A DNA stretch of 46,312 bases from Thalassavirus gary (lineage: Duplodnaviria > Heunggongvirae > Uroviricota > Caudoviricetes > Demerecviridae). The position numbers and the translations under genes were made by a program. Location: IMG/VR virus record IMGVR_UViG_2974784677_000001; one strand, written 5' to 3'. Below, piece by piece: positions 12,727-25,097 of this stretch; the stretch's first letter is position 1, and each line of letters opens with the position of its first letter. The notes under the pieces are model-generated. The model was not told where the DNA came from. It did not search any database and was given only the letters and a program-made list of their open reading frames with translations.

Positions 12727-13953
12727 ATGGGATTTAGAGACTGGTTAGTAACCAAATTAAACCCAGCCCAAGAACTTATAGCTAGAGAAGACCCTAGTTC
12801 TACTACTAGTAATAAGAAGCCTTTGACTACAACTCGTGCTTTTGAAGACGTAGAGGTTGTAAACCGTTGTGTTAACCTTTTAGTTGATAACGCTTGTCAA
12901 GTTAGATACGACATTAAAGATCAATATTCTTTTACTCCCCTTGGTTCTGGAAAGGCCAAAGGCGGTATTCGTCAAGATAAAGTAAAAGAGTTACTTAATG
13001 TTAGACCTAACCCATTTATGGACGCTAGTACTTTCTGGCGTTTAGTAATCATGGACTTTATCATGGAAGGTTGGGCATTTGTTCATTGGGATGGTTACTC
13101 ATTATATCATCTACCTGCTGCTAATATGGAAGTATATGCTGATAAGAAACAGTATATTAACAGATATATTTATGGCGCTCAGGTAGAATTTCAACCAAAT
13201 GAGATTATCTTTATTAAGGATAACGCTTATAACAGAGGTAACTCAACTCAGATTGAGGGATTCTCTAGAATCTTATCTAGCTTGGAAGGGCTGGTGAGAA
13301 GAGACAAACTGCTACAATTCAAAGAGAAATTCTTTGATAACGGTGCTGTATTTAGTTTAATACTTGAAACAGAAGCGGTACTAAACAAGAAACTTAAAAA
13401 ACGTTTCGAAGAAGAAATATCTTTAGATTATAACCCACGCACAGGTCGTTCTAGTGTTAAGGTTCTAGATGCCGGCATGAAAGCCAAAACTCTAACACCT
13501 ACTAGTTCTAAGGATTTGGATGTTAAAGCAGATGTTGACGATTTTGAACGTAAAGCATGTATTGCTTTAGGTATTCCACCATTATTACTAGACTCTGGTA
13601 ATAATGCTAACATTCGTCCTAATGTAGAGCTACTGTTCTATATGACCATTCTGCCTATGATGCGTAAATTTGAATCAGTATTTGAGACATTCTTTGGTTA
13701 TGATATTAAATTAACTACAGATGATATTACAGCGTTAGCACCAGATGCTAAAGCTGAGGCCGAAGCAGTAACCTCTAAGGTAAATAATGGTCTTATCACT
13801 CCCAACGAAGGACGTATCGAGTTACGCTACGAACCTCTAGAGGGTCAGGATATGGATAAGATTCGTATACCACAGAATATTGCAGGTTCTGGTACTGGAG
13901 TATCGGGACAGGAGGGTGGTAAACCTTCAAACTCGGACTCAGATGACAAGTAA
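12727..13953 (+). CDS. pb7: Portal protein (pb7-like, HK97 family)
   Basis: 408 aa; RPNPFM and ITPNEGR motifs; synteny. Confidence 0.93.
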   Translation: MGFRDWLVTKLNPAQELIAREDPSSTTSNKKPLTTTRAFEDVEVVNRCVNLLVDNACQVRYDIKDQYSFTPLGSGKAKGGIRQDKVKELLNVRPNPFMDASTFWRLVIMDFIMEGWAFVHWDGYSLYHLPAANMEVYADKKQYINRYIYGAQVEFQPNEIIFIKDNAYNRGNSTQIEGFSRILSSLEGLVRRDKLLQFKEKFFDNGAVFSLILETEAVLNKKLKKRFEEEISLDYNPRTGRSSVKVLDAGMKAKTLTPTSSKDLDVKADVDDFERKACIALGIPPLLLDSGNNANIRPNVELLFYMTILPMMRKFESVFETFFGYDIKLTTDDITALAPDAKAEAEAVTSKVNNGLITPNEGRIELRYEPLEGQDMDKIRIPQNIAGSGTGVSGQEGGKPSNSDSDDK

Positions 13954-14182
13954 ACAAGTAAACTTTAATACAGTCTACAACGATTACGGTGATACTCTCC
14001 CAGATAAGAGCACTTTCTTTAATGACCCTAAAAATGAGGTTACTAGAGTGATGCTTCGCTACCACTATAAAGTAGATAGTGACTGTAGAGCCTTTAAACG
14101 TTTTACAGATGAGTATGCCGAATTCGTAGCTGCATTAAAAGCATCTAAGAAACCTTCGGAGAATACTAATGAAGCTAAATAA
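13943..14182 (+). CDS. Head decoration protein, pb10 N-terminal domain only (79 aa)
   Basis: At the pb10 locus between portal and protease; YGDTLPDKSTFF resembles recalled T5 pb10 FGEKLPESHIFF; no Ig domain. Confidence 0.65.
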   Translation: MTSKQVNFNTVYNDYGDTLPDKSTFFNDPKNEVTRVMLRYHYKVDSDCRAFKRFTDEYAEFVAALKASKKPSENTNEAK

Positions 14183-14774
14183 GCCTATTGATATGGAGCT
14201 ATCCGCTAGTTTCGTGGCTAAAGCAGCTAACGATGAAGAAGATTCTCCATTGGTAATTAAGGGGTACGCTAACACAGTCAATAAAGACCGTGCAGGCGAC
14301 GTAATCCCTAAAGACGCATGGCTAGGTAAGGATGCTCTTCCTAACTATGAAAAGAACCCAATCATTCTTGCATTCCATAATCACTCTATGCCAATCGGTA
14401 AGATGGTCAGTTATGAAGTAACCGACGAAGGTCTACAGATTGAAGCAGAGATTAGCAAAGCAGCAGGGCCTGTATACCAGCTAATCAAAGACGGTATCCT
14501 AAAAACGTTTAGTGTAGGTTTCCGTTGTCTAGATGCTGAATGGAAGAAAGACGAAGATATTTATTTAATTAAAGAACTCGAACTATACGAAGTATCGGTA
14601 GTTTCTGTTCCATGTAATCAGGACTCAACATTTGAAGTATCTAAGAGTCTAAACTCTTCTGATTACAATGAATTTAGAAAACAACTTCAAGCAAAGGCTA
14701 GCAAGCCGAGCGAAACTAACGAAGTTGACGTGTTAGAAAAGCTAGCCATCGAGCTAGGAGTTATTAAAGGATAA
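14169..14774 (+). CDS. pb11: Prohead protease (HK97 type, pb11-like)
   Basis: GYANT, HNH..PIG, FSVGF, ELYEVSVVSVPCN motifs. Confidence 0.93.
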   Translation: MKLNKPIDMELSASFVAKAANDEEDSPLVIKGYANTVNKDRAGDVIPKDAWLGKDALPNYEKNPIILAFHNHSMPIGKMVSYEVTDEGLQIEAEISKAAGPVYQLIKDGILKTFSVGFRCLDAEWKKDEDIYLIKELELYEVSVVSVPCNQDSTFEVSKSLNSSDYNEFRKQLQAKASKPSETNEVDVLEKLAIELGVIKG

Positions 14775-14781
14775 GCAAATT

Positions 14782-16179
14782 ATGCCAATGACAGCAGAAC
14801 AAATCGCAGAACTACAAGAAAAACTAGGTATCAAAACAGTTGTAGACGCAGCTAAAGCAATTACTGATAAAGCTGAAGCAGAAGCTAAAGAAAAAGCTGA
14901 AAAAGCTCGAAAAGAAGCTGAAGATGCACGCGTTAAAGCTCTTGTAGATGAAGCTACTGGCGAACAAAAAGAAAAACTAGAGACAGCTCTAGCACTTATT
15001 AAAGGTCTTTCGGATAAACTTGAAGAAGGTGACGTAGACGGCTTCGCTAAATCAGTAGAAGACACCCAAAACCAAATCAAGTCAGTACGTGACGAAGTAG
15101 CTCAACTAATGAATGCTCGCGAAGGTAAAAACTCAATCGCAGTAGCAGTTGGTAAGGCATTCAAACTTGAATCTCAAACTGATTTCGAAGAAGAAGCTGA
15201 AAAAGCTGTTCTACTTTCTTTCATTACTAAGAAAGGCGTATTCGAAACAGATTTTGGTGCTAAACTAGAAAAAGCAGTAAACGATAGTTCATCTATCCAA
15301 GTTTCTAGCGAAAACTACGAAACAGTATTCTCAAATCGTATCCTACGTGACATTCAGAAACTACTAGTTGTTGGTGCTATGTTCCAAGAACTACCAATGT
15401 CAAGTAAGAAACTAACAATGCAAATCGAACCTGATGCACAAGATGCAACATGGGTAGATGCATCAACTTACGGTAAAGAAACTACTGTAGGTAACGAAAT
15501 CAAAGTTGCACTAACTGATATCACATTCAGTACATTCAAACTAGCAGCTAAAGCTTACATGACAGACGAAACTGAAGAAGACGCAATCACTGCACTTCTA
15601 CCAATTATCCGTCGTCACCTAATCGAAGCTCACGTACAAGCTATAGAGAAAGCATTCATGGGTGGTGAAGATACAGCTCCAGTAGGTAAACCAACTGGTC
15701 TATTGACTTTCGCTAAAATTGACAACAAACGTATTGCAACTACAGCAACACACGACGGTTCTGCTAAAGTAACTGCTAAAATGATTCATCAGCTACGTCG
15801 TCAACTAGGTCTTAAAGGTCTACGTCTAGATGCTCTAGCTCTAATCGTTTCAATGGACGCTTACTACGATCTTCTAGAAGATGACGAGTGGCAAGACATT
15901 AACCAAGTAGGCGCTAGCGCTTCGGTTAAACTACAAGGTCAACTTGGTCGTATCTACGGTATGCCAGTAGTTGTTTCTAGCTACTTCCCAGCTAAAGCAA
16001 CTAAGAAAGAGTTCTGTGCAATCGTTTATCGTAACGAATTCGTAGTTCCTCGCCAACGTCAGGTGACAGTTGAGTACGAACGTCGTGCTTCAGAACAGCG
16101 TGATGCGTACTACGTAACACAACGTCTGAACCTACAACGCTACTTCACTGGTAACGTAGTTTCAGGTACATACGCTTAA
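14782..16179 (+). CDS. pb8: Major capsid protein precursor (pb8-like, HK97 fold with N-terminal coiled-coil scaffold)
   Basis: 465 aa; EK/A-rich delta domain, KLAAKAYMTDETEEDA, GRIYGMPVVVS; strong codon bias. Confidence 0.95.
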   Translation: MPMTAEQIAELQEKLGIKTVVDAAKAITDKAEAEAKEKAEKARKEAEDARVKALVDEATGEQKEKLETALALIKGLSDKLEEGDVDGFAKSVEDTQNQIKSVRDEVAQLMNAREGKNSIAVAVGKAFKLESQTDFEEEAEKAVLLSFITKKGVFETDFGAKLEKAVNDSSSIQVSSENYETVFSNRILRDIQKLLVVGAMFQELPMSSKKLTMQIEPDAQDATWVDASTYGKETTVGNEIKVALTDITFSTFKLAAKAYMTDETEEDAITALLPIIRRHLIEAHVQAIEKAFMGGEDTAPVGKPTGLLTFAKIDNKRIATTATHDGSAKVTAKMIHQLRRQLGLKGLRLDALALIVSMDAYYDLLEDDEWQDINQVGASASVKLQGQLGRIYGMPVVVSSYFPAKATKKEFCAIVYRNEFVVPRQRQVTVEYERRASEQRDAYYVTQRLNLQRYFTGNVVSGTYA

Positions 16180-19487: not shown

Positions 19488-20372
19488 ATGTCATACACTC
19501 TACAAAAAGAGTGCAAGATAGTGTTAATCTATAAAGGTACAGGGTATCTATTCGATGCCCTTACCCAGTTTGACTTTAACCAGACTTTCAATAGATCGTC
19601 TGGTTCTAGAAAGACTCTGCACTCAAAGAAAGCAAAACCATATACTTATGCTAATTCAAAAAACTCAGCTACGTTTAGCTTCGGTGTATTAGGTACTAAG
19701 AGCTTTTCGGAAGGTGTATTATTCGAATTGGCTGGCCTAACTAAGCTACACGCCAATGTATATGAATATGGTGACGAATTAGGTATATCACCTGAGTTTT
19801 GTGATATATTTATAGTTACTAAGGCTGGCACACATAAAGTATCCAAAGCAGCGGTACAGTCACTAGAAGTATCACTAGCACTAAGTGAACCACTAGCTTT
19901 TGATGTATCATTTACTGCTAGTAGTATTAAAAGAGTATCTGGTATAGATTTATCTTCTGGGTTAATAGAGCAAGGTGAGCCGTTATTACCTACTCCTATA
20001 CAATATAGAATAAATAATATTCTTAATAACTCAGTAATAAATGCAGGTATATCTTTACAGCAATCCATAGACTGGAGGGCTGACAGAGGATTGCATGACA
20101 TAGGTAATTTATATGTACCTAAACATGCAGTACTAACGGATAGGAGTTATGGTATGAATGTAAATACGTATCTAAATACCAAATACCCTACTCCAGAAGA
20201 AGCTTATTACGCAAATCTAGAATTATATAAATCTGGATTATATCTCTCATTAGGAGATGCATTGGTAACACACAGAGTAGCTCCTGCGGATGTATTTACA
20301 GAAGCACAAGATGTTACTATAACTGACAAAACAAATAAAATTATCGTGGAATATGGAGGATATTTAATATGA
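19488..20372 (+). CDS. Baseplate tube / minor tail protein (p140-like)
   Basis: 294 aa directly after the tail tube; KTLH motif; synteny. Confidence 0.8.
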   Translation: MSYTLQKECKIVLIYKGTGYLFDALTQFDFNQTFNRSSGSRKTLHSKKAKPYTYANSKNSATFSFGVLGTKSFSEGVLFELAGLTKLHANVYEYGDELGISPEFCDIFIVTKAGTHKVSKAAVQSLEVSLALSEPLAFDVSFTASSIKRVSGIDLSSGLIEQGEPLLPTPIQYRINNILNNSVINAGISLQQSIDWRADRGLHDIGNLYVPKHAVLTDRSYGMNVNTYLNTKYPTPEEAYYANLELYKSGLYLSLGDALVTHRVAPADVFTEAQDVTITDKTNKIIVEYGGYLI

Positions 20373-20779
20373 AATTAAGTCTATCAGCATTAGCACTTAA
20401 CTCAAAAACAGCAGAGTTTGACTTCCCAGGTATCGTAGGATTTAAAGTACGTCTTACTTATCTATCAAGAGAGGCTAGACGTAAGATTCAGGAAAAATGT
20501 AAAGTTCAGAAATATGATGAAACTTCTGGTCTTCCATACATGGATCTAGATGTAGAGAAATATACAGAAGAATACGTGAAAGCAACAATCAATGGCTGGA
20601 CAGGGTTAACGCTAGAGAACGTAGCTAACCTAATGCTTATCGATCAATCTCAAGTAGAAGACCCTAAAGCTGAAATCGATTTTGACATTGATACTGCTAC
20701 ACAGCTTGTTAAGTTATCTGAGAAATTTGATAACTGGGTTAGTGCTAAGTTGGCACAAATCGAGAACTTTCGAAACTGA
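20369..20779 (+). CDS. Tail assembly chaperone G (p139-like)
   Basis: 136 aa; position before the tape measure; ends TTT CGA AAC TGA. Confidence 0.8.
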   Translation: MKLSLSALALNSKTAEFDFPGIVGFKVRLTYLSREARRKIQEKCKVQKYDETSGLPYMDLDVEKYTEEYVKATINGWTGLTLENVANLMLIDQSQVEDPKAEIDFDIDTATQLVKLSEKFDNWVSAKLAQIENFRN

Positions 20780-21182
20780 GAGACGGAAACTTCTATTCGA
20801 ATCTCTCGATAAATATTTCGATAAACAGAATGGTTTCTCTAAATCTAAGTATATAAATATATGTATGCAACTTGGAGAGAAGCCAGACCCTAAGAGAATG
20901 CCTATAGATTTCTCAGACTTTCCACCACTAGTGAGAGATGCTATAGAAATCTTTAATAGACTAGGTGACAGGTACACTAGTACTGATCTTGGACCACTTT
21001 ATATTGGTAAAGATATATCAACATTAGATTTCTTATATAATATTTATGAGATTCATGATGTAGAAGATAGAAAATTAACACTAGAGATAGTACAGCACCT
21101 AGATAGTAAAATAGTTAAACAAGCAGTTAGTAAATGGAAAACAGAAGCCAAAAAGCTAAAAGCAAAGGCTAAACACCACTAG
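20769..21182 (+). CDS. Tail assembly chaperone T segment (p138-like), probably expressed as a frameshift fusion
   Basis: +1-frame ORF overlapping the G stop; EKPDPKRMPIDFSDFPP motif; no clear RBS/start. Confidence 0.7.
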   Translation, partial: FETERRKLLFESLDKYFDKQNGFSKSKYINICMQLGEKPDPKRMPIDFSDFPPLVRDAIEIFNRLGDRYTSTDLGPLYIGKDISTLDFLYNIYEIHDVEDRKLTLEIVQHLDSKIVKQAVSKWKTEAKKLKAKAKHH

Positions 21183-21219
21183 CTACTTAACCGAGTCCTC
21201 ACGGGCATTCCACGAGCTT

Positions 21220-21248
21220 GCTCTGGGTGTAATGCCCAGAGCTTTTTT
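21220..21248 (+). terminator. Rho-independent terminator with an alternative pairing partner
   Basis: gctctgggt-gtaat-gcccagagc + tttttt; upstream gggcatt 21203-21209 is complementary to aatgccc 21231-21237. Confidence 0.7.
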
Positions 21249-21263
21249 CGTATGGAGAAAACA

Positions 21264-22025
21264 ATGATTAAAGACCTAAAAACATATATTGAAACCGTGA
21301 ACAAATCAGCAACATCTTCTGTATCAGGAGCAGAAGATACTAAAGTAGAAACATTGCGTCAAGCAGTATTAAAAGGTAGCTGGTTACTTCCATTGCTGCC
21401 TAATATTACTATGACTGGTAAATTTACTGATATTCCTTTCATCCACCTACCTGACGATGATGACACTACTTTCCGAGTAGGTGGCATTCAAGTAACAAAA
21501 GAATTACTAGCAGCACAAGCAGTATTAGTAGATGATACAGTAGAAGATTCTAGCCCTAACCTAGAAACAGCCCTAGATAGAATTCTTATCTCTCAAGCAC
21601 GTCTTAAAGTAGAAAACTATATTGCCGACCAAATGTCTGCTATAACAGCTACAGCAGGTGTTGCCTCTTCTAAGTCGTTTTCTACAATTGTAGAGTTAAT
21701 TAAGAAATTCCCTAACCAAATGTTAGCTATCGAAGGTAAATTCGTAGCAGTGGTATCTCCTATGACACACTTCACTATTCTGTCAACAATGGATAACGCA
21801 CACAGAGAGATGGTAAAATCTGGTATCATTACTCTAGTACCGGCATTAGGTATGGAAGACGATGCCCTAATTATGTTCCATACTCAGGGTGTAGCGTTAG
21901 GTTATACTATCAATGGTATTGAGAAAGACCGAGATGGAGCTAGCCAAAAAGACAACCTAATAGTTCAAGCAACAGCAGGCTTTGGATACGATAGCGATTA
22001 CATCAAACACGTAAAACTAAGCTAA
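21264..22025 (+). CDS. Truncated HK97-fold capsid-like protein (253 aa) inserted in the tail operon
   Basis: GGAG RBS; ELLAAQAVLVDDTVEDSSPNLETALDRILISQARLKVE aligns with MCP FKLAAKAYMTDETEEDAITALLPIIRRHLIEAHVQAIE, with further collinear matches. Confidence 0.7.
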   Translation: MIKDLKTYIETVNKSATSSVSGAEDTKVETLRQAVLKGSWLLPLLPNITMTGKFTDIPFIHLPDDDDTTFRVGGIQVTKELLAAQAVLVDDTVEDSSPNLETALDRILISQARLKVENYIADQMSAITATAGVASSKSFSTIVELIKKFPNQMLAIEGKFVAVVSPMTHFTILSTMDNAHREMVKSGIITLVPALGMEDDALIMFHTQGVALGYTINGIEKDRDGASQKDNLIVQATAGFGYDSDYIKHVKLS

Positions 22026-22040
22026 TAAACGGGAGTTTAT

Positions 22041-25000
22041 ATGGCTAACAAGCTAATTGAAGAGCTAATTATTAAGGTTAAGCAGCAAGGTGCTAAACCT
22101 ACAGAGAAAGCAATTACTGGTGTCGGAGAAGCCTTCGACACCGCAAAGAAAAATGTCAATGCATTTAACTCAGCCTCAGAACGTGTACCTAAATATCTTA
22201 AAAAGATAGAAGAATCAGCAGACAGAGCAGCTAAGTCTATGGGTAAAGTAAAATTTACCATGGACTCCACAACTATTGAAGCATCACTAGGTCGTATCGA
22301 AGGTAGCCTAGAAGCCTTAATTGGCGAAAGTCATGACCTTTACGATGCAATGGCTAAGATGAATAACAACTTAATTACTCTATTCCAGAATATGAGCAAC
22401 GAGTTGGGTGCTGATTTAGAGCGTGTAGAAGATGGTCTTATTGATGTTCGCTCTGAAGCTGGGAAAACTGGAGATGCGTTAGCTAAGTTAGGCAAAGGAG
22501 CAGGTAAGGCCGGTAGAGGTCTAGGTAACCAGAACCGCCAAGGTAGAAATGGTGTGCGTACCTTCTCAGACCTAGCGAAAGTAGCGGGCCCATTACCTCT
22601 ACTATACGCTAACATTGCAGCTAACGTGTTCGCGCTTAGTGAAGCCTTTAGACTACTAACCGAAGGCGAACAATTAAATCGTCTAGAAGAAGTTGGCACT
22701 ATCATAGGTTCTAAAATTGGTACACCAGTTCAGTTAATAGCTAAGGATATGCAGAAGTTAACTGGGTATACCCTTAGTTATGGTGAATCACTAAGAAATG
22801 CTGCTGCAGCTGCCTCTTATGGGTTCGATTCAGAGCAAATAGAACAGTTAACTATGGCAGCACGTCGAGCATCTATTGCTCTAGGTGTAGATATGCAAGA
22901 CGCCATGAACCGTGTTATTCGTGGTACATCTAAACTAGAAATCGAGCTATTGGACGAACTTGGTATCACTACTAAGCTAACAACCGCTTATGAGCGTTAT
23001 GCTCAACAATTAGGTATTAGTGCCAATTCACTTAACTCATACCAGCAACGTGCAGCATTGGTCAATGAGATTAACTCACAGTCGGTAGAGAAGTTTGGCG
23101 ATTTAGATGAGATGTTGAGAAACGGTGCTCCTTGGGAAGTATTTGGGGCTAATACTGCATCAGCATTCCAGACGTTTATGCAGAATATCTCTGAGGCTAC
23201 TTCATTCATTCCTAAATTCTTCAATGAAATAGAGGAAGGGTCTAGACGAATAGAAGAGCCATTAGATAATGCTAAAAAGCTACTAGAATCTTTCTCTATG
23301 GCAGATGGCAGGGCCGGGCAAGTAGGTATACTTGTAGAGGCCAACAACCAAATAGAAGAACTAGAAAAGAGATTAAGTGTACTAAGTCAGGCCAATACTA
23401 GTAGTTTTTCTGTGGCTGATCTTGTAAACTATAAAGATGAAGTACGAAACGTACGTACTGCTATAGATAGGCTTAGAGGTTTGATGTCCACCCAAAGTCT
23501 AGGTATAGATGCTATCAAAGAGATAGACGGTGCATATAGAAACCTAAATGCTACAGTAAAAGGTTCAGTACAATCTTATAACACTAGTTTAGCCTCAATT
23601 AAGGGGCAAAGTACTTCTTATGAGAAACTATACGCAGATGTAAACTCTATGAAAGTAGCCTATGAGAAGTTAGCTGCTGTAGATCCTGGATTTAAGGCTG
23701 CAGATGCACTTAAACAATTAGGCTTTGAGTCTAAATTCGCATTAGACCGTGCAACAGAACTTGCCAGAACTTATAGAGATACTAACAGGGAGTTGGCAGT
23801 ATTCGCTAAAACCCAGGCAGAAGCAGAGGTCCAAGGACGCTACTCAGGTAAAGAACCAGAAGCAGTTAAGCTAGGTCTATTAAAAGAACAACAAAACTTA
23901 TATACTAAACTTCTAGTAGATCAACAAAGATTAGGTGCTAGTAGTGTGGCTACCGCTAAAACATCTGCCCAGATTGCAAAAATAGCATCTCAAACCATAG
24001 ATACGCAGGTTGCTTTAGTAGACGTACACACCAAAGAACTAGATACCCAAACTAGACTGAATATGGCTCTACAACCAGAGCTATTAATTAAGAAAGACCT
24101 ACTATCCAATGAGAAAACCAGATTAGCAAACTTGCAGCTGATCCAAGGTACTCATAAGGAGCAAGAACAGTCTCTAAATAGAATCAAGCAATTAGAAAAC
24201 GAAATACTGGCAGCACAAGTAGCTCAGTCTAATGCTATGATGGATTCTGCTCTAGGTAACTTAGCATCATTTGCCCCAGGTATTGATCAAATGACTAGTT
24301 CCCTTAATGGACTAGCTATGTCATTCAATAACATGGGTCAATCTAGCATGACCACCACACAGATGGTGTCTTCTGGGTTGAATGCCTTCCAAGGTATGCT
24401 ATCGTATTCTTCTAACCAGTCTATACAAGCAGTAGATGCTCAAATAGCTGCTGAACAGAAGCGAGATGGTAAGTCTAAGGAATCAGTAGCTAAGATAAAT
24501 GCACTTGAGAAGAAGAAGATTGAACAACAGAAAAAGGCAGCCAAGCAACAAATTCTTATCTCTACTGCGGTAGCGGTAATGAATGCGGCGGCCAACCCTT
24601 GGCCTGTTCCAGCTATCCCGTTAATGGCTACAGCAGCCTTAGCAGGTGGACTAGCATACCAACAAGCCTCTAGCGCTTCTAGTAATTTAGTATCTTCTGC
24701 TAGTGGCAATACTCAGGCATCCTTAACTCTTGGCGATAGGTCGAATCAAGTAGATGTATCTCAATCAGCATCTCGCGGTGAGTTAGCTTATATTAGAAAC
24801 GAATCTGGTACTGGTAGTATGCAATCATTTACTCCTAGAGCTAATGGTGGTATAGGTATCCCAGGAAATAGTCTAGTAGTAGGTGAACATGGTCCGGAGG
24901 TTATCACACCCCTAGAACCAATACAAGCTTACAGTGCAGAAGAGTCTAGAGCTATGGGCGGTGGTTATACGGATAACCGCCAACTAGTAGTACAGGCTAT

Positions 25001-25097
25001 TGATACTCAATCAATCATGGATAGAGCAGATGATATATTTGATGCTTGGGATGATGCAGCTTATCAAAGAGGCATGAACTCAGACAGACTACGTTAA
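22041..25097 (+). CDS. pb2: Tape measure protein (pb2-like, 1018 aa)
   Basis: N-terminus KLIEELIIKVKQQGA; LLDELGI motif; hydrophobic segment; C-terminal RANGG...VGEHGPEVI. Confidence 0.93.
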   Translation: MANKLIEELIIKVKQQGAKPTEKAITGVGEAFDTAKKNVNAFNSASERVPKYLKKIEESADRAAKSMGKVKFTMDSTTIEASLGRIEGSLEALIGESHDLYDAMAKMNNNLITLFQNMSNELGADLERVEDGLIDVRSEAGKTGDALAKLGKGAGKAGRGLGNQNRQGRNGVRTFSDLAKVAGPLPLLYANIAANVFALSEAFRLLTEGEQLNRLEEVGTIIGSKIGTPVQLIAKDMQKLTGYTLSYGESLRNAAAAASYGFDSEQIEQLTMAARRASIALGVDMQDAMNRVIRGTSKLEIELLDELGITTKLTTAYERYAQQLGISANSLNSYQQRAALVNEINSQSVEKFGDLDEMLRNGAPWEVFGANTASAFQTFMQNISEATSFIPKFFNEIEEGSRRIEEPLDNAKKLLESFSMADGRAGQVGILVEANNQIEELEKRLSVLSQANTSSFSVADLVNYKDEVRNVRTAIDRLRGLMSTQSLGIDAIKEIDGAYRNLNATVKGSVQSYNTSLASIKGQSTSYEKLYADVNSMKVAYEKLAAVDPGFKAADALKQLGFESKFALDRATELARTYRDTNRELAVFAKTQAEAEVQGRYSGKEPEAVKLGLLKEQQNLYTKLLVDQQRLGASSVATAKTSAQIAKIASQTIDTQVALVDVHTKELDTQTRLNMALQPELLIKKDLLSNEKTRLANLQLIQGTHKEQEQSLNRIKQLENEILAAQVAQSNAMMDSALGNLASFAPGIDQMTSSLNGLAMSFNNMGQSSMTTTQMVSSGLNAFQGMLSYSSNQSIQAVDAQIAAEQKRDGKSKESVAKINALEKKKIEQQKKAAKQQILISTAVAVMNAAANPWPVPAIPLMATAALAGGLAYQQASSASSNLVSSASGNTQASLTLGDRSNQVDVSQSASRGELAYIRNESGTGSMQSFTPRANGGIGIPGNSLVVGEHGPEVITPLEPIQAYSAEESRAMGGGYTDNRQLVVQAIDTQSIMDRADDIFDAWDDAAYQRGMNSDRLR

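Follow-up and report, generated by a model that had tools for sequence, protein, structure and literature searches.

Introduction

Among the Demerecviridae, T5 serves as the structural model; a single capsid protein, pb8, makes up its T=13 shell. In T4 a paralogue of the major capsid protein, gp24, is dedicated to the vertices. This protein carries a short N-terminal propeptide and can be bypassed by mutations in the capsid protein. The gp24 gene lies next to gene 23, and gp24 keeps an insertion domain. Encapsulins have the HK97 fold in a compact form (about 250–280 residues) and no scaffold domain.

A further second capsid-fold protein, MCPp (ORF73), is found in Jabs, a siphophage of Mycobacterium abscessus. 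It consists of 257 residues, has no maturation domain and only a reduced axial domain, and forms 11 pentons (bioRxiv 10.64898/2026.07.24.740622). Beside MCPp the phage has a long capsid (hexon) protein with a cleaved N-terminal domain; the shell is T=9 and disulfide-linked (bioRxiv 10.64898/2026.07.24.740622).

Here we analyze a gene for a second HK97-fold protein in a T5-like Vibrio phage. The DNA is a stretch of 46,312 nucleotides from Thalassavirus gary (IMG/VR record IMGVR_UViG_2974784677_000001), hereafter the window, and covers the structural genes of a Thalassavirus phage (Demerecviridae, Ermolyevavirinae). Its relatives, the Vibrio/marine T5-like phages, are a sister radiation with more than 300 sequenced genomes, and they appear to have kept this second capsid-fold protein since before the lineages split.

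GenBank labels the gene "hypothetical protein" everywhere, and the fold has been caught in a UniRef name, where the Ceto homologue is called "Major capsid protein". A literature search found no study of the gene. New in our analysis are protease and lectin fusions, recurrent tandem duplication, the exchange of the gene as a cassette in Ceto, and the dN/dS of the family.

The gene and its genomic setting

The open reading frame lies on the plus strand, ends at 22025 and has two possible ATGs, 21252 or 21264. The likely start is ATG 21264. It stands six bases after a GGAG ribosome-binding site (21255–21258), and the corresponding ATG is the annotated start in Brizo, Thalassa, pVp-1 and Ceto. From this start (21264–22025) the gene encodes 253 amino acids (P0001; 257 if ATG 21252 is used). 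The protein, hereafter the paralogue, is 99.2% identical to proteins of the Vibrio phages Brizo and Luma. Among PHROGs it belongs to phrog_15693 ("unknown function", E 1e-140), and it matches phrog_617 (major head protein) weakly (E 1.3e-3).

The window has the gene order annotated in Brizo: terminase, portal, protease, capsid, head completion, tail terminator, tail tube, p140, chaperones, paralogue, tape measure, distal tail protein and baseplate hub. The prohead protease (14169–14774) is of the Peptidase_S78 type. The major capsid protein (14782–16179, 465 amino acids) includes a delta domain, its mature part is predicted to begin at A165, and it is the presumed assembly partner of the paralogue.

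The paralogue gene itself lies 5 kb downstream of the head genes, within the tail operon. Its upstream neighbors are the tail assembly chaperone pair, G and the frameshift extension T (20369–21182). Between these and the paralogue, directly upstream of the latter, is a strong intrinsic terminator (21220–21248; 10-bp stem, 6 GC pairs, T6). The tape measure gene (22041–25097) begins 15 nt past the paralogue stop. All of these features are on the plus strand.

In the portal/protease gap, where T5 has the decoration protein pb10, the window has only an open reading frame of about 80–110 amino acids (13943–14182). The same situation occurs in all paralogue carriers examined; the product is 26–43% identical across genera and has no assigned function. 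No homologue of pb10 was seen in the portal-protease region of the window or of those carriers.

Sequence homology and fold

A Pfam search with the paralogue yields no family at E≤0.1, and the gathering threshold of PF05065 (Phage_capsid) is not reached; the major capsid protein of the window scores 50.4 bits against PF05065. Pairwise BLASTP between the two proteins is not significant by itself (best segment E 0.043, in the TDETxED region). A profile built from the 15 closest homologues also matches the PDB only marginally (E 0.08).

A more diverse profile gives a clear result. The alignment of 34 family sequences matches nine T5-type capsid proteins in hhalign with a probability of 96.1% and E 3.2e-9 over 224 columns, so that residues 21–245 of P0001 correspond to capsid protein residues 169–452. 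When the same profile was compared with all 177,635 distinct PDB sequences, the only significant matches were T5 pb8 (E 5.6e-6 and 3.2e-4) and the DT57C capsid protein (3.7e-4). Conservation within the family is highest at two motifs, TDETxED ahead of the spine helix and E..R in the long strand of the P-domain, and both are invariant in T5-type capsid proteins too. At the profile level, then, the protein proves to be distantly paralogous to the major capsid protein of T5-type phages.

The original prediction had rested on four collinear segment matches to the major capsid protein of the same phage. All four fall in the hhalign register. By themselves they would not exceed chance, because pairwise BLASTP is marginal; it is the profile comparison that is significant.

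The predicted structure agrees with the homology. AlphaFold2 reached a pLDDT of 72 with 15 close homologues and a pLDDT of 88.4 (pTM 0.81) with 34 diverse sequences. Its elements follow one another as in HK97: an N-arm of two helices at the N-terminus, then a short hairpin (the E-loop), a P-domain strand, a spine helix of 26 residues, the A-domain and long P-domain strands at the C-terminus.

Foldseek returned 363 PDB matches at E≤1e-3; the best 50 of these 363 are all capsid proteins or encapsulins, headed by DT57C and T5 (E 5e-11, probability 1.00). In VIA-align 536 chains have Z≥8. The best is the LME-1 capsid (Z 15.6, rmsd 3.3 Å, 214 residues), and encapsulins (Z 15.0–15.5) and HK97 Prohead II (14.5) score similarly. 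The best T4 head chains (Z 14.1, rmsd 2.9 Å) cover residues from about 11 or 21 to 419, which fits gp24, and we take them to be that protein. In BFVD the first matches are uncharacterised proteins of the Vibrio phages JSF10 and VspSw_1, followed by capsid proteins. Hence the predicted second HK97-fold protein in the tail operon is borne out by model, structural searches, profile and motifs alike.

The paralogue shares the HK97 fold and the TDETxED and E..R motifs with T5 pb8 (PDB 5tjt, 8zvi), with DT57C (8ho3) and with the capsid protein of the window, at an identity of about 17%. In contrast to these proteins it lacks the 160-residue delta domain: on the capsid protein side the alignment sets in at the mature N-terminus, and the N-terminus of the paralogue aligns to the mature N-arm. 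The E-loop is shorter by about 20 residues (about 26 versus about 49 in the hhalign alignment). Both omissions had been read from the sequence beforehand. In addition, the A-domain region is about 30 residues shorter; the capsid protein is longer by about 15 residues behind the spine helix and by about 18 in the A-domain.

A short N-terminal propeptide is possible. PDB chain 5tjt (299 residues) corresponds to T5 pb8 160–458 and thereby places the pb8 maturation site. The paralogue segment E/TVNKSATSSV aligns to the capsid maturation site and sits in a low-confidence linker between the two N-terminal helices.

In its described features, Jabs MCPp resembles the paralogue. Both are a second HK97-fold protein in addition to a separate capsid protein, both are without a scaffold or maturation domain, and both have a reduced axial domain. 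The setting differs. The Jabs MCPp gene adjoins the hexon gene, whereas the paralogue gene is 5 kb away in the tail operon of a relative of the T=13 phage T5. A position next to the major capsid gene, typical of T4 gp24 and Jabs MCPp although not strictly defining, is thus not found in the window. Between the paralogue and T4 gp24 there is no detectable sequence similarity.

Distribution and age

With tblastn we found the paralogue in 329 phage records, all of them Vibrio phages, and the reading frame is intact in all 329. The capsid protein, searched in the same way, is found in 878 records: 328 Vibrio records and about 550 from Salmonella, Escherichia, Klebsiella, Proteus, Aeromonas and others. 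In these roughly 550 non-Vibrio T5-like records the paralogue is undetectable by tblastn. Judged by these counts, the paralogue is a core gene of Vibrio T5-like phages. The family is small; an exhaustive profile scan of 1.8 billion representative proteins retrieved only 33 clusters. In the complete Brizo and Ceto genomes the family profile matches exactly the paralogue and the capsid gene.

In the whole T5 genome the same profile matches only pb8, so T5 does have a single capsid-fold gene, as the original prediction held. That T5 has nothing at this locus is incorrect. T5.141 (250 amino acids; L002:20778–21530; T5 record 95777–96529) sits between the chaperone gene and pb2. It is a CapR/treble-clef zinc-finger "endonuclease" that matches PF21817/PF14311. 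We rejected it as a homologue of the paralogue (BLASTP E 36; PF21817/PF14311 are absent from P0001). The slot between chaperones and tape measure therefore appears to tolerate unrelated cargo. T5 also has an annotated terminator after the chaperone genes, equivalent to 21220–21248 in the window. Because a terminator precedes the slot in both phages, the slot appears to be a low-expression position that is shared with the tape measure gene.

Unfused relatives that have their flanking genes on the contig are always located after the chaperones and before the tape measure. The sample covers Thalassavirus, Vipunavirus, Cetovirus, Jesfedecavirus, Pogseptimavirus, phage D239 and five metagenomic T5-like contigs.

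Two deep clades make up the family tree, outside which the forms fused to a protease (see below) fall, and both clades recur in a tree of portal and capsid proteins. In the latter tree, which samples one enteric phage and has long outgroup branches, T5 groups with one of the carrier clades (support 90/90), and only 2% of the bootstrap trees have a branch that separates the carriers from the rest. As T5 is nested among carriers and the domain occurs in the outgroup too, a loss in the T5 line is more parsimonious than a gain. These trees make it more likely that the paralogue is ancestral, and was lost in the T5 line, than that it is a recent insertion.

Fusions and duplications

In HK97-fold shells the N-terminus faces inward, and the C-terminus is outside at the center of the capsomer, as work on encapsulin display has established. 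The turret of Jabs MCPh likewise exposes its C-terminus outside at the capsomer center (bioRxiv 10.64898/2026.07.24.740622). A subunit embedded in a shell would hence be expected to tolerate a protease at its N-terminus and a lectin at its C-terminus, and the family has members of both kinds.

P0046 (395 amino acids) and P0047 (406 amino acids), which come from different samples and are 38% identical to each other, consist of a Peptidase_S78 prohead protease domain followed by the capsid-fold domain. The protease part of P0046 is 67% identical to residues 22–153 of the protease of the window. The capsid-fold domain starts about where this match ends, and it therefore appears to replace the C-terminal part of the free, 201-amino-acid protease. 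The junction of P0046, K/AVKPSVAVSSD, resembles the capsid maturation site K/AVN.SSSIQVSSE; the maturation site of the capsid protein on the P0046 contig itself is K/AVNGSSSIQVSSE. Such a fusion is absent from all isolates in the phage collection that we searched.

The same layout, protease and then capsid fold, is known from the "major head and protease protein" of small phages (PHROG 617/4523). In our two loci with the fusion (L003 and L006), by contrast, the fused protein is a second capsid-fold protein with a separate capsid protein next door, and the paralogue of the window is unfused. The gene order there is unusual, with capsid, fusion, portal and tape measure in succession; the domain is thus among the head genes and adjoins a separate, delta-bearing capsid gene.

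Both loci are metagenomic (L003:876–8505; L006:231–6499), and their gene order can include a homing endonuclease between fusion and portal. Their identity to the window is mosaic: 67% for the protease, 54% for the tape measure, 37% for the portal and 32% for the capsid protein. They could represent either a T5-like lineage with rearranged genes or a satellite of Vibrio phages of the T5 type. A related-locus search with P0046 returned one IMG/VR contig, which looks unrelated.

Other members of the family are extended at the C-terminus. P0037 (717 amino acids) has a Laminin_G_3 lectin-type domain plus about 300 amino acids, P0044 has 176 additional amino acids, and P0042 has 50.

Four contigs (L004, L008, L014 and L016) have two tandem family members in the slot, and the family tree indicates lineage-specific duplications. 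Open reading frames without a Pfam match lie between tandem paralogues, of 329 amino acids (L016:10902–11891), 70 amino acids (L004:12151–12363) and 76 amino acids (L008:1256–1486). On L014 it is the true major capsid protein that carries a fused prohead protease (L014:3230–5209; 659 amino acids, Peptidase_S78 and Phage_capsid). This contig has its two tandem short paralogues in addition, upstream of the tape measure gene.

Selection and cassette exchange

Compared with Thalassa the paralogue has a dN/dS of 0.11; in comparison with pVp-1 and Ceto the value is about 0.2 (overall range 0.11–0.21). The corresponding values are 0.17–0.20 for the capsid protein and 0.12–0.16 for the tape measure. 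By these ratios the paralogue is under purifying selection.

The paralogue nevertheless diverges about twice as fast as the capsid protein (cross-genus identity of 24–44% versus 54–74%). This is within the range of proven virion proteins, namely p140 (27–42%) and the tape measure (34–50%), and the head completion protein can be cited likewise.

Ceto differs from the window in a conspicuous way. Its p140 and chaperones are 99% identical to those of the window and its capsid protein 93%, but its paralogue is only 70% identical, and this paralogue is 82% identical to that of pVp-1. The exchanged block extends over about 21300–22600 (plus strand), with 62–75% nucleotide identity inside and 96–100% in the flanks, and it reaches about 190 codons into the tape measure gene. 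From these identities it follows that the Ceto allele was swapped as a cassette without the capsid gene. Co-variation of paralogue and capsid gene is accordingly not seen among close relatives, Ceto being the case in which one was exchanged and the other not.

Two 100-nt islands are 93–100% identical in the window, Ceto and pVp-1, in surroundings of 60–84%. The first (21200–21299) spans the terminator, the ribosome-binding site and the first paralogue codons, and the second (22000–22099) of the last paralogue codons and the first 20 tape measure codons. They may be recombination anchors or regulatory elements that frame an exchangeable cassette.

What the paralogue may do

Four functions had been proposed from the sequence: a vertex protein like T4 gp24, a decoy against capsid-sensing immunity, a poison or decoy against capsid-hijacking satellites, and a repurposed tail-assembly factor. 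Of these the gp24-like subunit of vertex or shell fits best. We consider the chances about even that the paralogue is a minor subunit of the capsid shell, probably of its vertices, as are T4 gp24 and Jabs MCPp.

The course of events would then be as follows. An ancient T5-type capsid paralogue that lacks the scaffolding (delta) domain and parts of the E-loop and A-domain would be synthesized late, from RNA that extends past the terminator downstream of the tail chaperone genes. In the prohead it would assemble together with the delta-bearing major capsid protein, and its most likely place is the 11 vertices of a T=13 shell other than the portal vertex, which it would occupy as pentamers (about 55 copies). 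Its N-terminus would point inward and its C-terminus outward at the capsomer axis. The prohead protease may trim a short N-terminal peptide. Our results establish the fold, the homology, the conservation, the purifying selection, the synteny and the natural fusions; incorporation, vertex position and processing are what we infer.

Several results argue for a shell subunit. The HK97 fold is complete, it superimposes on solved shells with a Z of up to 15.6, and it comes with profile homology to T5-type capsid proteins and with common motifs. The natural protease fusions have a capsid-like junction, as expected of an inward N-terminus, and P0037, P0044 and P0042 carry their additions at the C-terminus. 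Jabs MCPp and T4 gp24 are precedents. The gene is a core gene (329 paralogue versus 328 capsid records from Vibrio phages) with conserved synteny. Its dN/dS is like that of the capsid protein, and its divergence stays within the range of proven virion proteins.

Other results argue against a shell subunit. The gene is in the tail operon, 5 kb from the head genes and behind a strong terminator. It diverges about twice as fast as the capsid gene and was exchanged in Ceto without it. Tandem copies are not needed in a simple model with one penton protein. Finally, T5, whose capsid protein is about 58% identical, builds all of its pentons from pb8 without such a gene. The function of the paralogue must therefore be dispensable or replaceable. 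The bypass of T4 gp24 by capsid mutations is a parallel to the loss in the T5 line. A literature search found no virion proteomics or capsid structure for any Vibrio T5-like phage.

Should the paralogue build vertices, tailed phages would have just three known paralogues dedicated to pentons, and this one would be the first with its gene outside the head module. T5, with its natural loss, would then allow a comparison of how pentons and hexons come to be made by one protein. The fusions with protease and lectin point to natural routes for loading proteins into capsids or displaying them there, which would be useful in phage engineering.

A plain penton protein is not the only way to read the same data. 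Tentatively, and with a clear minority of our confidence, we consider that the family may be an exchangeable capsid-fold module, which is swapped, duplicated and decorated with lectin-type domains or a protease. Such a module could build a specialised, variable vertex structure that meets the host or the environment, or act as a mimic that beats a Vibrio-specific capsid-sensing defense or a capsid-hijacking satellite.

Somewhat less probable, in our judgment, is a capsid mimic that acts off the shell altogether, either as a soluble decoy against capsid-sensing host defense or as a poison or decoy against capsid-hijacking satellites. An arms race would fit the operon position, the twofold faster divergence, the exchange in Ceto independent of the capsid gene, the tandem duplications that recur in separate lineages, and the T5 pentons. 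A restriction to Vibrio/marine T5-like phages, with none in about 550 enteric ones, and a T5 lineage that manages without the gene also suit a mimic. Counter-defense genes, however, are typically patchy, whereas the paralogue is present in every Vibrio T5-like record and was inherited vertically over deep divergence. Expression is from the late tail operon behind a terminator and not early. A dN/dS of 0.1–0.2 gives no sign of positive selection, and it would make no sense for a cytoplasmic decoy to be joined to the prohead protease through a junction that resembles the capsid cleavage site. If the protein were such a mimic, it would represent a new type of counter-defense. Whatever its role, the gene is conserved in phages that are under development against Vibrio in aquaculture.

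The prohead protease fusions, which tie the family to prohead maturation, are also compatible with an assembly factor of the head that is not retained in the shell. It could nucleate the prohead, or position the protease as an adaptor and later be degraded. The resemblance of the N-terminal segment to the capsid maturation site and the ability of T5 to do without the paralogue agree with this role. Yet the fold is kept in full, down to the lattice contacts of E-loop, P-domain and A-domain, and lectin-type additions at the C-terminus suggest a lasting location that faces outward. We regard such a factor as rather unlikely.

A role in the tail is improbable. The unfused paralogue is always the gene just before the tape measure, from which 15 nt separate it, and the two apparently share a transcript; the block exchanged in Ceto covers the paralogue together with the first ~190 tape measure codons. 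The protein might thus act on the head-proximal N-terminus of the tape measure, for example, or in joining head and tail. But adjacency alone explains why paralogue and tape measure N-terminus are inherited together, and we rejected this linkage as a sign of interaction. In L003 and L006 the domain is with the capsid, protease and portal genes and not beside the tape measure, and in T5 the slot holds an unrelated endonuclease of the mobile type. We know of no HK97-fold protein in any tail.

An encapsulin-like compartment encoded by the phage, or a decaying duplicate without function, is very improbable: encapsulins match the structure as well as capsids do (Z 15.0–15.5), but the sequence kin are T5-type capsid proteins and no related locus has a cargo gene or targeting-peptide partner nearby (the neighbors being chaperones and tape measure), while purifying selection, a frame intact in 329 records and deep vertical inheritance exclude decay.

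Further features of the tail genes

Three observations concern the tail genes around the paralogue. The tail tube protein of the window has a C-terminal Ig-like domain (residues 398–480). In Ceto, gp30 (L019:5266–5838) is annotated on the minus strand as "1,4-dihydroxy-6-naphthoate synthase" over the p140 gene, which truncates p140. This annotation is probably an artefact, given that the p140 frame of Ceto is 99% identical to that of the window. In the middle of the tape measure gene, the segment 23100–23800 of the window has 38–65% nucleotide identity to Thalassa and 92–97% to Ceto. By this pattern it is a second, independent mosaic block in the same gene.
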